A DNA stretch of 64,000 bases from an uncultured actinomycete. GTDB taxonomy: Bacteria; Actinomycetota; Acidimicrobiia; Spongiisociales; UBA5794. Below are positions 41,176 to 45,358 of this stretch, piece by piece. Each line of letters starts with the position of its first letter. Position 1 is the first letter of the stretch. Position numbers and translations under genes: made by a program. The notes beneath the pieces are model-generated. The model did not search any database. It had not been told where the DNA came from and saw only the letters and a program-made list of their open reading frames with translations. The stretch spans positions 53,113 to 117,112 of the forward strand of contig CALOAN010000011.1 in NCBI GenBank assembly GCA_942491345.1, in the 5' to 3' direction.

Positions 41176-41916
41176 TTAAGAGGGGGTTCCTTCAGACCGG
41201 ACGAGGGCAATGGCTTCCTTTAGATCCAAAGAGCCGCTGTATAGCGCCTTTCCGGTAATGACACCATTGACACCGACAGGTCCCAGCGGCAACAGATTTC
41301 TGATATCATCAATGGTGGACACACCACCGGAGGCCACGATGGGTATCGAAACAGCTTCGGCCAGCTGCCGGGTCGCTTCGAGGTTCGGACCGCTTTGCAT
41401 ACCGTCCCGGTGTATATCGGTAAAATTGATGGCCGCGATGCCGACATCCTCAAAACGGCGCGCCAGATCAATGGCTGTTGTTCCGGTGGTTTCCGTCCAT
41501 CCCTCAATGGCAACATACCCATTGCGGGCATCGATGCCTACGACAATTCGCTCCGGAAAGGCCCGGGCGGCCTGAATGACAAAGTCCGGGTTGCGAATGG
41601 CTTCCGTACCCAGAACGATGCGCGACACACCGATGCCGATATAATTTTCGATGGTCGCCATATCACGAATGCCCCCACCCAGCTGCAGCGGGACTTTGAC
41701 GCCGTTCAGAATGCTTTCGATAGCGGGCAGATTCCGGGGTTTTTTATCGACCGCCCCGTTTAAATCGACCAGGTGAATGAGTTCCGCACCCAGGGCCTCC
41801 CAGCGCTGTGCCATGGCCGTCGGGTCATTGGAAAAGACGGTTTCGCGGTCCATCATGCCCTGCAGAAGGCGAACGCAACGCCCATCCTTGATATCGACTG
41901 CCGGTATAATAATCAT
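41176..41916 (-). CDS. hisA: ProFAR isomerase
   Basis: IIPAVDIKDGRCVRL, IHLVDLNGA, LQLGGGIRD, FTDIHRDGM and VASGGV. Confidence 0.95.
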   Translation of the reverse strand: MIIIPAVDIKDGRCVRLLQGMMDRETVFSNDPTAMAQRWEALGAELIHLVDLNGAVDKKPRNLPAIESILNGVKVPLQLGGGIRDMATIENYIGIGVSRIVLGTEAIRNPDFVIQAARAFPERIVVGIDARNGYVAIEGWTETTGTTAIDLARRFEDVGIAAINFTDIHRDGMQSGPNLEATRQLAEAVSIPIVASGGVSTIDDIRNLLPLGPVGVNGVITGKALYSGSLDLKEAIALVRSEGTPS

Positions 41917-42593
41917 GGTTGCTTGAATTCCTTAAACATGTCGTCCATAGCGGTTGTCGCCATTTCCTCTGACGTTACCCAACGGCCGCCGCGCTGGAAA
42001 AAGGCCCCGATAAGACGCAGATCATCCGCCAGGGCCTGCTGGGTTTGATCAAAATAACCAGACCAGACCAGCTTTTGTTCGACACAATCGATCAAATAGA
42101 CATCGAACGCCACGGAAGCCGCCGATTCCGCCGAATAATCCGCTCCAACCCGGTCTTTAAAACGGTATAAGTAGCCCTGGATCACCATATCAGCATTTAA
42201 CATGCGGCCCGTCTGGGCCAGGATTTTCAGAGGTGAGCGTTGGGAATCCTCGGCAGATTTGAGCGCATCCATGACGTCATAGGCTTCCCGCGAGGGAATG
42301 GTTTGGAGAGCGGTTTGCTGCTGCAAGGCACCGACAAGCAGATCCGTGAGGAAACGATCAGCGCCCTCGCTGACAGGACCGGTCATGAATACTTTGCCGG
42401 TCAGAGGGCATCTCACATTCACATTTATTCCGTGAAGCCAGGCCATATTCTGAAACGGCAACACCAGGACTTTCCCTGTACCATCAAACTCCCCGGTTGC
42501 GTGGGTCACCGGCCCGCTGGATTTACAGGCCCACAGCCCGATAAAACAGACCAGAATCAGTGCCCATTTTAAAATAAGACATGGTAACTTCAT
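41913..42593 (-). CDS. hypothetical lipoprotein
   Basis: Signal peptide ending in the lipobox-like LWA-C; ATGA overlap with hisA. Confidence 0.72.
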   Translation of the reverse strand: MKLPCLILKWALILVCFIGLWACKSSGPVTHATGEFDGTGKVLVLPFQNMAWLHGINVNVRCPLTGKVFMTGPVSEGADRFLTDLLVGALQQQTALQTIPSREAYDVMDALKSAEDSQRSPLKILAQTGRMLNADMVIQGYLYRFKDRVGADYSAESAASVAFDVYLIDCVEQKLVWSGYFDQTQQALADDLRLIGAFFQRGGRWVTSEEMATTAMDDMFKEFKQP

Positions 42594-42697
42594 AAAATTC
42601 TCTTCAGGTGTTGGTGCCGTTAGGAAAAAGCAACGCGGCATGCATCAGAAAATCACTGGCAAACAGTTTTCGGATGGATCGCAGGTTTTAGAATACC

Positions 42698-43288
42698 TCA
42701 GATAGCGCCCTTAGTGGAACGAACCCCCTTAACCCTGCCGTCCAGCCCGACGGCTTGGGCCAGTGCACGACCCATCGATTTAAAGACCGATTCGATGATA
42801 TGGTGCGGGTCGTCACCATAGCGGACGTTAATGTGCAAATTCATTCCGCCGCGCGTCGCCAACGCACGACAAAATTCTCGGACCAGATGAGGGGCGAACT
42901 GACCAGCAGGTCCCATGCCTTCAGGTAAACGGCAGACGAGATAGGGTCTTTTAGAGAGATCGATCGTCACTTCCCCCAGGGCATCATCCATGGGTGTTAC
43001 CGCATGTCCATATCGCCGGATTCCTTTGCGGTCGCCCAGAGCACAATCCAGGGCCTCGCCCAGAACAAGTCCCAGATCTTCGACCGTATGATGGTAATCG
43101 ACCTCTATATCGCCCCGGGCCGCAATGTCGATATCCATAAAACCATGTGCGGCCATCAGGGTCAGCATGTGATCCAAGAAGGGAATGCCGGTCAAGATAT
43201 CAGTGTGTCCCCGACCATCGAGATTGAGCCGGGCCTTGATGCGGGTCTCCTTGGTATTGCGTTCCACTTCCGCCGTGCGCTCTTGCAT
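42698..43288 (-). CDS. hisB: imidazoleglycerol-phosphate dehydratase
   Basis: RNTKETRI, TGIPFLDHML, DYHHTVED, PMDDAL, DPHHIIESVFK and STKG. Confidence 0.96.
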   Translation of the reverse strand: MQERTAEVERNTKETRIKARLNLDGRGHTDILTGIPFLDHMLTLMAAHGFMDIDIAARGDIEVDYHHTVEDLGLVLGEALDCALGDRKGIRRYGHAVTPMDDALGEVTIDLSKRPYLVCRLPEGMGPAGQFAPHLVREFCRALATRGGMNLHINVRYGDDPHHIIESVFKSMGRALAQAVGLDGRVKGVRSTKGAI

Positions 43289-43435
43289 TCTTGTCTATCC
43301 CCTTCCGGGACGTATCCGCTATTGATTGTTTTTTACGGATAAGTACAATGGAGACGAACAGCAAGTCAAGGGCATCATGGGGTATCATCCATATGGATAA
43401 CGGAAATTGCGATGTGTCGTGCGAGGAGACAAACT

Positions 43436-44671
43436 ATGCATACGGTGACAGTCGACGATCCTGAAGTAGGCGTTCTCATCGATCGGGAAGCTTCCCGCCT
43501 GCAGAACACCATCAACCTGATAGCGGCAGAGAATCATTCACCGGACAGTATCCTTGCGGCCCAGGGATCGGTTTTTTCGATGAAGGCCGCCGAGGGCTAT
43601 CCGAAAGCCCGCTATCACGGGGGGTGTCTCCACACCGACGCGCTTGAGCAACTTGCCGGCACCCGCTGCCGGCAGCTTTATGGTGCCGACCACGCCAATC
43701 TGCAACCCCACAGCGGTGTCGCGGCCAATCTGTCCGTTTATTTTGCGATGCTGGATATCGGCGATCGCGTTTTATCCATGAAGCTTTCCCACGGCGGCCA
43801 CCTCTCACACGGCGCCAGTGCCTCCATCACAAGTCGCTGTTTTGATTTCTCACATTACGGTGTTTCATCGAAGACAGAGCAAATCGACTACGACGCCGTG
43901 GCGTCTTTGGCCAAAGAACGGCAACCCAGGATGATTGTCGCCGGGGCAAGTTCTTATCCGCGATTGATCGACTACGGTCGACTGGCGGACATTGCGGCCG
44001 GCGTTTCGGCGCACTTAATGGTTGACATGGCGCATATTGCCGGCCTGGTGGCGGCCGAAGCCATTCCAAGCCCGGTTCCGTATGCCGATTTTGTGACCTT
44101 CACCACCTACAAGACCCTGATGGGAGGACGCGGCGGTGTGATTCTATGCAAACGCCCCCATGCCGCCCGCATCGACCGGTCCGTATTCCCCGGCTGCCAG
44201 GGAACCCCGGCCATGAATATGATCGCCGCCAAGGCGGTCTGTTTCCACCGGGCGGGAAAACCCGCCTTTCGTAAAATTCAACACCAAACCCTTTCCAACG
44301 CCAGTTGCATGGCCCAGGAGCTTGTATCCCGCGGTTATCGCATCGTGAGCGGTGGAACGGATAATCATCTGGTTCTCATTGACCTGCGCCCCAGGGGACT
44401 GACCGGAGACCTGGCCGAAAAACAGCTCGAAGCAGTCGGCCTGATTGTCAATCGCAACCCGATTCCCAATGATCAGCAAAATCCCACAACAGCCGGCGGT
44501 TTGCGTCTGGGGACACCGGCCATCACGGCAAGGGGTATGAAAGAACCCGAAGTCAAGTGCATCGTGGCGTGGCTTGACACCGTTCTGACCAACCACCACC
44601 GGAAAAATATCCAGGAGAACATCGCCCGCGAAATCGCGGCGCTCTGTCATCGATTTCCTGTTTCCTACTAA
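43436..44671 (+). CDS. serine hydroxymethyltransferase-fold PLP enzyme with a divergent active site
   Basis: NLIAAEN, EGYP, QPHSG, GGHLSHG, DMAHIAGL, TTYKTL and GLRLGTP; several canonical SHMT residues are substituted. Confidence 0.85.
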   Translation: MHTVTVDDPEVGVLIDREASRLQNTINLIAAENHSPDSILAAQGSVFSMKAAEGYPKARYHGGCLHTDALEQLAGTRCRQLYGADHANLQPHSGVAANLSVYFAMLDIGDRVLSMKLSHGGHLSHGASASITSRCFDFSHYGVSSKTEQIDYDAVASLAKERQPRMIVAGASSYPRLIDYGRLADIAAGVSAHLMVDMAHIAGLVAAEAIPSPVPYADFVTFTTYKTLMGGRGGVILCKRPHAARIDRSVFPGCQGTPAMNMIAAKAVCFHRAGKPAFRKIQHQTLSNASCMAQELVSRGYRIVSGGTDNHLVLIDLRPRGLTGDLAEKQLEAVGLIVNRNPIPNDQQNPTTAGGLRLGTPAITARGMKEPEVKCIVAWLDTVLTNHHRKNIQENIAREIAALCHRFPVSY

Positions 44672-44890: not shown

Positions 44891-45358
44891 ATGTCGGCAA
44901 CCGAAGCGAAAACGGAATGGCTGGAACGAATTCGAGATATCTTCAACAACAAGATTTCCTTCAACCAGGTGTTAGGCCTTCGCGTGCATGCCCTTGAGAC
45001 GGATCGCCCCAAAATCCGTTTCGACATGCGCGAGGACTTGGTGGGCAATTACATCAAGGGATCACTGCACGGTGGTGTCATATCGGCCGTTATTGACGTG
45101 ACAGGAAGTCTGGCAGCATTCATGGGGCACCAGAAGAAGCAGGCTGGGGAGTCGGTGGACGTCAAATTGGATAAATTCCGTAAACTCGGAACCATTGACC
45201 TGCGCATCGACTACCTGCGCCCGGGCGTCGGGCAAAGATTTGAAGCGACCGGATATATTCTACGAATCGGTAACAAAGTCGCTGTCACCCGTATCGAATT
45301 GAAAAATGAAATCGATCAATTGATTGCGGTTGGAACCGGTGCATATGTCATTGCCTGA
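44891..45358 (+). CDS. hotdog-fold thioesterase (PaaI-like)
   Basis: FNQVLG, LHGGVISAVIDVTG, GTIDLRIDYLRPG and GNKVAV. Confidence 0.88.
   Translation: MSATEAKTEWLERIRDIFNNKISFNQVLGLRVHALETDRPKIRFDMREDLVGNYIKGSLHGGVISAVIDVTGSLAAFMGHQKKQAGESVDVKLDKFRKLGTIDLRIDYLRPGVGQRFEATGYILRIGNKVAVTRIELKNEIDQLIAVGTGAYVIA

Follow-up and report, generated by a model that had tools for sequence, protein, structure and literature searches.

The question raised by this locus is whether the gene at positions 43436-44671 (+) of the window, the whole 64,000-nucleotide stretch analyzed here (positions 53113-117112 of contig CALOAN010000011.1, hereafter C11, in assembly GCA_942491345.1), encodes the housekeeping enzyme GlyA or a relative of it with a different chemistry, pipelines and submitters having named the protein and its homologs either "serine hydroxymethyltransferase" (SHMT) or "glycine hydroxymethyltransferase". 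On our analysis, the protein most likely transfers hydroxymethyl groups in a folate-dependent manner, with an alpha-substituted or D-amino acid as its substrate. In its fuller form, namely that the protein is functional, dimeric, dependent on both pyridoxal 5'-phosphate (PLP) and tetrahydrofolate (THF), and a member of the methylserine/PbzB type as opposed to the housekeeping SHMT that acts on glycine and serine, this reading would have about an even chance of being right. The kind of enzyme is already known; what is new is a large chromosomal lineage of it in anaerobic Desulfobacterales and Syntrophobacterales, with a pocket variant of its own.

The gene is predicted to encode a full-length and intact SHMT-family protein of 411 amino acids, the coordinates including the stop codon. 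The open reading frame as listed is longer (43412..44671, +; 419 amino acids), and we preferred the ATG at 43436 over that at 43412 because of the Shine-Dalgarno-like GAGGAG at 43423..43428 (+), 7 nt 5' of the former, and because of the length of the homologs, nearly all of which, among the best 120, have 411 residues. The protein matches the Pfam family SHMT (PF00464) from end to end with 445 bits and the NCBIfam model NF000586 with 506.9 bits (cut-off 335). Its AlphaFold2 model has a mean predicted local distance difference test score of 94.6, and the top structural matches to it are bacterial SHMTs, among them that of Bacillus stearothermophilus (bsSHMT, 1KKJ; Z 54.5, root mean square deviation 1.3 Å over 366 residues), to which the sequence aligns collinearly (6-404 vs 6-404) with 420 bits and approximately 50% identity. 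The numbering of the window protein is therefore that of bsSHMT. A search of the ESM Atlas returned generic SHMT clusters only.

What sets the protein apart is its active site. It carries the motifs SMKAAEGYP, RYHGG, TFTTYKT, CQGTP, and LRLGTP, and its family may be denoted as TTYKTLMGGRGG/QGTP; A51, H61, Y225, and T257 stand where the E. coli enzyme has Tyr55, Tyr65, His228, and the second Gly of QGGP. The first-pass annotation had listed these four substitutions, all of which are present in the alignment with bsSHMT and in 120 homologs, and it had missed two more. When 154 canonical SHMTs were compared with 121 variants, and a position was called diagnostic if at least 85% conserved in the former, at least 90% in the latter, and different between the two sets, exactly six were found: S31A, Y51A, Y61H, H225Y, P231G, and G257T. 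The canonical Ser31, Tyr51, Tyr61, His225, Pro231, and Gly257 vary little or not at all in the former (S, Y, Y, H, and G at 31, 51, 61, 225, and 257 reach 99-100%), while the six-position signature is fixed in 121/121 members of the clade. The best 120 homologs, at 63-92% identity, all have KAAEG, R[FY]H, TFTTYKT, and QGT[PT] and, where they are named, come from Desulfobacterales, Desulfobacteraceae, Thermodesulfobacteriota, or Deltaproteobacteria metagenome-assembled genomes (MAGs); the named sources among the best 120 matches to queries of both types described below (A-type and T-type) are MAGs only, many of these matches being unnamed. The ratio dN/dS of the window gene against four orthologs is 0.11-0.14, and because all 120 best homologs carry the motifs and dN/dS is low, the pattern is a fixed signature and not one of chance or decay. 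Proteins of the window type diverge 1.4-1.6 times faster than canonical glyA across the same genome pairs, yet they are well conserved.

The six changes fall on one side of the catalytic center. In the neutron and X-ray structures of the Thermus thermophilus enzyme, two side chains (Ser95 and the partner subunit's Tyr51) and three backbone amides (Gly94, Ser95, and the partner's Gly258) bind the PLP phosphate, while the substrate site is made up of Ser31, His200, Arg358, and the partner's Tyr61, with the partner's Glu53 as the likely base (PMC10397204). In the window gene, all on the + strand, the codon of A31 (43526..43528) stands for canonical Ser31 (E. coli Ser35), a binder of the substrate carboxylate; that of A51 (43586..43588) for Tyr51/Tyr55, which binds the phosphate of the partner subunit's PLP and is Thr in PbzB and in the methylserine hydroxymethyltransferase (mSHMT) discussed below; and that of H61 (43616..43618) for the substrate-contacting Tyr61/Tyr65, which is His in PbzB and mSHMT. 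At the codons of Y225-K226 (44108..44113) the PLP lysine is kept and the His before it has become Tyr, the codon of G231 (44126..44128) replaces the canonical Pro of KTLRGPRGG, and that of T257 (44204..44206) replaces the Gly of QGGP, whose backbone amide binds the partner's PLP phosphate. From these roles it follows that the six changes remodel the pocket around the phosphate and C-alpha but spare its folate side. The window protein keeps the SHMT scaffold, the Schiff-base Lys226, the PLP contacts S93, G94, H122, D197, and H200, the acid/base Glu53, the carboxylate Arg357 (44504..44506), and the folate-site residues L117, G121, L123, and N341 (codon 44456..44458; the bsSHMT N341A entry 2vmn is among the structural matches). 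Across the 121 clade members, E53, S93, G94, L117, G120, G121, H122, L123, S172, D197, H200, K226, R232, N339, N341, and R357 are all conserved at 100%, in agreement with the earlier remark that the PLP lysine and the C-terminal arginine had been retained.

That the gene is a paralog of glyA had been proposed from the substitutions, with a search of its own genome for a canonical copy as the suggested check. A PF00464 profile search of the assembly did reveal a second, canonical SHMT (glyA) on another contig, C10, but the comparison is confounded. The assembly has approximately 63.5% GC, whereas C11 has 52-58% GC from about 5 to 124.5 kb, with the window inside; tetranucleotide frequencies of this segment correlate with those of the other large contigs at only ~0.65, against 0.99 for the remainder of C11 and likewise among the other contigs, and there is a sharp compositional switch near 124.5 kb, so that the foreign segment spans some 120 kb (~C11:5,000-124,500). 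The window is syntenic, gene by gene at 58-98% protein identity, with contigs of Desulfobacterales MAGs, and it carries the housekeeping genes dnaG, hisA, hisB, and an aspartokinase gene. Taken together, GC content, tetranucleotide composition, synteny, and these genes lead us to conclude that the contig is chimeric and that the glyA of C10 belongs to another organism. We therefore rejected this copy, which lies in the ~63.5% GC DNA of that organism, as evidence of a paralog in the same genome; whole-genome inference for the window is unsafe, and the coexistence test was run in relatives instead.

The four closest genomes have orthologs 77-92% identical to the window protein in a shared hisB / gene / lysC neighborhood, and each holds a canonical glyA (NKYAEGYP/RYYGG/TTHKT/QGGP; 550-556 bits) beside the variant (445-451 bits). 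Two more distant genomes (G008, G009) pair copies of a T-type, ~55% identical, with a canonical glyA of 547-548 bits. In three of the four genomes with a ~64% identical copy (G005, G006, G010), the variant is instead paired with an archaeal-type SHMT with canonical residues, whose best match in the Protein Data Bank (PDB) is 4bhd/4uqv (365 bits), which we take to be the Methanocaldococcus jannaschii enzyme. Among 121 genomes sampled from the order, with the variant defined as the score class of 410-466 bits and 17 of the ~25 cases checked for motifs, the class was found patchily in ~25 (~21%); a bacterial canonical glyA accompanies it in ~17 of these and an archaeal-type gene in 6. Neither was found in G080 (a single 5.57-Mb contig), G019, or G007, the last from the first set of relatives; these three instead have an 890-970-aa GcvT-SHMT fusion, whose GcvT part matches NF001567 with 336 bits and whose SHMT domain keeps S31, Y51, E53, Y61, H225, K226, and R357. 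Every carrier genome checked for one thus has a canonical-residue SHMT-family protein besides the variant, which is an accessory gene in about a fifth of the Desulfobacterales genomes sampled and, in those checked, never the sole member of the family. As far as sequences can tell, the idea of an SHMT-fold paralog, probably distinct from true GlyA, is upheld by this coexistence and by the tree described next.

The homologs of canonical residue type are worth recording for themselves. GcvT-SHMT fusions with a C-terminal SHMT domain of archaeal type were seen in Desulfobacterales at L094:1366-4053 (-) and also in L093, L104, L105, L106, L138, and L139; in G080 no SHMT-family protein apart from such a fusion has canonical residues, and the sole SHMT that stands alone is the T-type member. 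A literature search returned no paper on a natural GcvT-GlyA fusion. The archaeal-type SHMT (L092:1444-2769, +; L102; L103) replaces bacterial glyA in several Desulfobacterales genomes and is the only match in G098 and G125 at an E-value limit of 1e-40. A literature search for glyA2 in Desulfo* found nothing.

The phylogeny, also suggested by the first-pass annotation, places the lineage with enzymes of other specificity. Among 150 homologs retrieved from representatives at 50% identity, 81 have Y-Y-H-G at positions 51/61/225/257, 17 have T-H-Y-T, and there are further A/S/T-H variants; T-H-Y-T proteins were found in Streptomyces, Burkholderia, Vibrio, and Kibdelosporangium, and their genes in Burkholderia and Vibrio lie in clusters with nonribosomal peptide synthetase (NRPS)/TauD or ATP-grasp/GCS2 genes. 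In a maximum-likelihood tree of 82 sequences (IQ-TREE), all 44 non-canonical sequences, the window lineage among them, fall in one clade with 97% support in the SH-like approximate likelihood ratio test (SH-aLRT). Within it, a subclade with 99% support unites the Desulfobacterales variants, both the A-type of the window, with Ala at position 51 in 100% of sequences, and its sister, the T-type (KTIEG/RFHAG/TFTCYKT/QGTS), with Thr. When the six signature columns were removed, a free quick search lost the single clade and the tree constrained to contain it had a log-likelihood 21 units higher, with p = 0.74 in the approximately unbiased (AU) test; common descent is therefore favored over an artifact of the signature, and we regard that of the 44 non-canonical homologs as moderately supported. 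The window protein thus appears to group with homologs of the PbzB/FmoH/mSHMT type rather than with GlyA, the tree being anchored indirectly by close homologs (G026/G066, P0161; 60-66% identical) of the mSHMT encoded on a plasmid for the degradation of tris(hydroxymethyl)aminomethane (TRIS), while the protein of strain Teo1 itself, PbzB, and FmoH are absent from it. The top PDB match of one Streptomyces T-H-Y-T protein in the tree (P0192) is 7qcw, a 460-aa chain with T76 and H86 in TAEG..RYH. The structure of PbzB is cited under another code, 7QWZ (PMC10098953), and may be of the same protein as 7qcw; a literature search on 7QCW returned an unrelated paper only.

The functions known in this clade explain our preference. 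The PbzB-type enzymes (PbzB, AsmD, FmoH, XvbB) have TAEG..RYH in place of the YAEG..RYY of GlyA; with PLP and methylene-THF, PbzB makes 2-hydroxymethylserine from serine or glycine, and its T68 and H78 are argued to enlarge the pocket for the PLP-serine adduct, T68Y/H78Y being inactive (PMC10098953). Enzymes of this type use methylene-THF to form either 2-hydroxymethylserine or alpha-methylserine; with THF, FmoH converts alpha-methyl-L-serine to D-alanine and back (PMC13351049), and a THF-dependent mSHMT has been proposed to split 2-hydroxymethylserine to D-serine in bacterial TRIS degradation (PMC10848231). In the Streptococcus thermophilus SHMT, the change Y55T widened donor use to D-Ser, and engineered Y55T/Y55S at this position widen it to D-Ser and D-Ala (PMC4761611). 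The window protein shares with the PbzB type the fold and dimer logic of SHMT, the PLP lysine, the folate-site residues, and a small residue at 55 with His at 65, but it has Ala51 in place of Thr, bears S31A and P231G in addition, and is only ~40-45% identical; the NRPS or ATP-grasp clusters of the Burkholderia and Vibrio members contrast with its chromosomal housekeeping context in anaerobic Desulfobacterales. 7qcw, with the same TAEG/RYH, has His and Ala where the window protein has Tyr225 and Thr257. The genetically implicated mSHMT (EC 2.1.2.7; the glyA2 of Pseudomonas hunanensis Teo1, located on plasmid p1_Teo1 in a glyA2-dsdA-folD-purU-dsdX operon; T51/H61/T225/S257) is a THF-dependent SHMT homolog that likewise has H61 and has lost the canonical His225 and Gly257, and it belongs to the same broad clade through its close homologs; it differs in its T-H-T-S pattern, in keeping Ser31 and the canonical loop, in being 42% identical, and in its operon, which the window gene lacks. 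The engineered S. thermophilus enzymes (6TGH and 6TI4 are among the structural matches to our model) carry a small residue at the same position, Tyr55 being Tyr51 here, but there it is the only change, made in the laboratory, to an enzyme that is canonical in all else, and the assay was a folate-free aldol reaction. Canonical SHMT (EC 2.1.2.1; 1KKJ, E. coli 1DFO) remains the best overall match in sequence and fold, with the same length and the same PLP and folate residues, but all six of its signature residues are replaced.

Two observations touch the pair His61/Tyr225. A strict residue swap was not supported as a rule, H61 occurring also with H225 (7qcw, P0267) and with T225 (mSHMT, G026, G066). 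Apart from this, a near-canonical SHMT of a Thermovirgaceae MAG (L037:750-2063, +) keeps Tyr51 and QGGP but has RYHGG and TSTTTKT, which looks like an independent Tyr61-to-His change coupled with loss of His225. The T51/H61/T225/S257 homologs of two Desulfobacterales genomes, G026 (L119, C108:13800-15900) and G066 (L120, C88:700-2800), the former 66% identical to the TRIS-plasmid mSHMT of P. hunanensis, are a second, distinct lineage of methylserine type in the same order.

In mechanistic terms, we envisage that replacement of Tyr51 and Tyr61 of the partner subunit and of Ser31 by Ala, His, and Ala would remove or reshape the groups that press on the substrate C-alpha and shut off the glycine pocket, with Thr257 and Tyr225 probably assuming the phosphate and pocket contacts. 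In the characterized relatives with the Tyr-to-Thr and Tyr-to-His pair, a pocket enlarged in this way accepts an alpha-substituted PLP-amino-acid adduct, and the hydroxymethyl group is moved between 5,10-methylene-THF and C-alpha (D-Ala <-> 2-methylserine; Ser or D-Ser <-> 2-hydroxymethylserine), and the same type of reaction may be expected of the window enzyme.

Several points weigh against this assignment. Overall, the protein shares approximately 50% identity with bsSHMT and with a relative's canonical glyA, versus 42% with the plasmid mSHMT; position 51 is Ala and not Thr, and positions 225/257 are Y, T versus T, S in mSHMT and H, A in 7qcw. Near the loci examined, no D-Ser/D-Ala catabolic gene, folD/purU, or NRPS was found, and the neighborhoods vary by subclade. 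Neither 2-methylserine nor 2-hydroxymethylserine has, to our knowledge, a natural role in sulfate-reducing anaerobes, and we infer the chemistry of the lineage from its sequences. Moreover, PbzB itself forms trace serine from glycine, so that SHMT activity may persist (PMC10098953).

The alternative that survives best, although we consider it unlikely, is that of an isofunctional second SHMT, a GlyA isozyme in which the six changes compensate one another and serine/glycine interconversion is kept, perhaps tuned for the reductive-glycine or serine-assimilation direction. The hydroxyl of Thr257 would then stand in for that of Tyr51 at the phosphate, and His61 and Tyr225 would be exchanged. Such a swap of Y51A with G257T is conceivable since the partner's Tyr51 and the Gly258 amide touch the same phosphate (PMC10397204), and some serine is formed from glycine even by PbzB (PMC10098953). 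The NF000586 score well above the cut-off, the full conservation of folate, PLP, and acid/base residues, an overall sequence nearest to GlyA, and the position of the window gene amid housekeeping genes all favor an isozyme, as does G080, whose T-type member is the only stand-alone SHMT and lies in a setting that looks serine-cycle-like in this one genome (L140:6219-11480, +), where tightly packed genes for enolase, a glycerate kinase family protein (DUF4147/MOFRL), the T-type paralog, and alanine dehydrogenase are followed by mreB-mreC-(mreD)-PBP2-rodA. Against it, the changed residues are the very sites at which single substitutions cripple SHMT: structures of the mutants bsSHMT Y51F and Y61A and E. 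coli Y65F are among the structural matches, and these mutants are reported to have lost activity. In addition, the clade nests with enzymes of other specificity, the gene is accessory (~21% of the order) and always accompanied by another SHMT-family protein of canonical residues, the fusion of G080 included, and it has diverged 1.4-1.6 times as much as canonical glyA.

Much less probable is a folate-independent aldolase or transaldolase, that is, a threonine or beta-hydroxy-amino-acid aldolase, an L-threonine transaldolase, or an alpha-methylserine aldolase. Paralogs of such kinds on the SHMT fold exist (PMC5490192, PMC7162832), alpha-methylserine aldolase is described as THF-independent (PMC7918591), and the loss of Tyr51 and Tyr61 alters the handling of beta-hydroxy substrates. 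However, E53, L117, G121, L123, and N341 of the folate site are conserved at 100% among the 121 members, which would be unexpected of an enzyme that makes no use of folate, and the model of fluorothreonine transaldolase (TIGR04506) scores 87.9 bits versus a cut-off of 650; on these two grounds we consider this function unlikely. The low score led us to reject membership among fluorothreonine/threonine transaldolases, and the threonine aldolase/transaldolase kinship raised by the first-pass annotation is not the nearest one. Moreover, in two PDB sequence searches, with the window protein and with the Streptomyces T-H-Y-T protein, all 60 matches listed are named serine hydroxymethyltransferase.

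SHMT is known for racemase and transaminase side reactions. A PLP enzyme without one-carbon (C1) transfer, be it a racemase of D/L-alanine or serine or an aminotransferase on the SHMT scaffold, is the least probable of all, for although such side reactions exist, GlyA is proposed as a D-Ala source in Chlamydia (PMC3935232), and the homolog of G080 adjoins alanine dehydrogenase and mreBCD-PBP2-rodA, the folate pocket is conserved, the alanine dehydrogenase neighbor occurs in only one of the loci examined, and the presence of a bona fide alr (TIGR00492) in 5/5 relatives tested makes a racemase role unneeded and led us to reject replacement of alanine racemase.

The surroundings of the gene differ among subclades and hold no consistent hint of its role. 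In the window, hisB (IGPD; 42698..43288, -) is the divergent neighbor, an arrangement kept in orthologous loci down to 70% identity, and the intergenic region between the two genes holds a sigma-70-like promoter match, TTGATT-16-TACAAT (43322..43349, +), which is a match to the consensus only. A hotdog thioesterase of 4HBT type (44891..45358, +) follows 220 bp downstream on the same strand and is kept only in the four closest relatives, the order in the window subclade being hisB / gene / 4HBT thioesterase / lysC. In the 64% subclade the order is MlaC-MMPL-gene-RraA-like-cyclase-DUF3786, with a spacing of 25 bp between the gene and that of the RraA-like protein in one locus, and in G114 the paralog is the last gene of a Liv-type ABC transporter operon. 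A conserved operon partner was accordingly rejected, none being common to the subclades examined. An Rfam search around the gene (E-value up to 1) gave no riboswitch or leader match, with sub-threshold noise only in one locus of 64% identity. Further along the minus strand of the window (41176-43288), hisB is followed by a 242-aa gene without Pfam match and then by hisA, the same order being found in the relatives L003-L006; in L108 a 226-aa gene without Pfam match lies between IGPD and His_biosynth, and the arrangement is a stable feature of the lineage. In Burkholderia (L109:13770-18142), genes with Cap15 and CD-NTase domains lie near the NRPS-linked T-H-Y-T homolog and a phage-type integrase, in an island like those of cyclic oligonucleotide-based antiphage signaling systems (CBASS).

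For annotation, the six-residue signature would be a simple means of telling true glyA from paralogs of this kind; under its present name, the paralog would count as GlyA in reconstructions of Desulfobacterales metabolism. If the assignment to the PbzB/mSHMT-like enzymes is true, widespread environmental sulfate reducers would carry out a folate-linked reaction, absent from present models, on alpha-substituted or D-amino acids. A bolder proposal, which we put forward only tentatively and hold to be doubtful, is that the A31-[A/T]51-H61-Y225-G231-T257 lineage of Desulfobacterales/Syntrophobacterales may carry out folate-dependent C1 transfer on a substrate new to the SHMT family, in the ordinary chromosomal metabolism of anaerobic sulfate reducers and not in secondary metabolism or xenobiotic catabolism; examples could be a pathway for the formation or use of 2-methylserine or 2-hydroxymethylserine, or a C1 shuttle linked to D-amino acids that runs alongside the Wood-Ljungdahl or glycine pathways. 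Enzymes for the synthesis of alpha-tertiary amino acids are a small and sought-after set (PMC13351049), which the lineage would extend by natural pocket variants (Ala51, Ala31, Gly231, Tyr225, Thr257).

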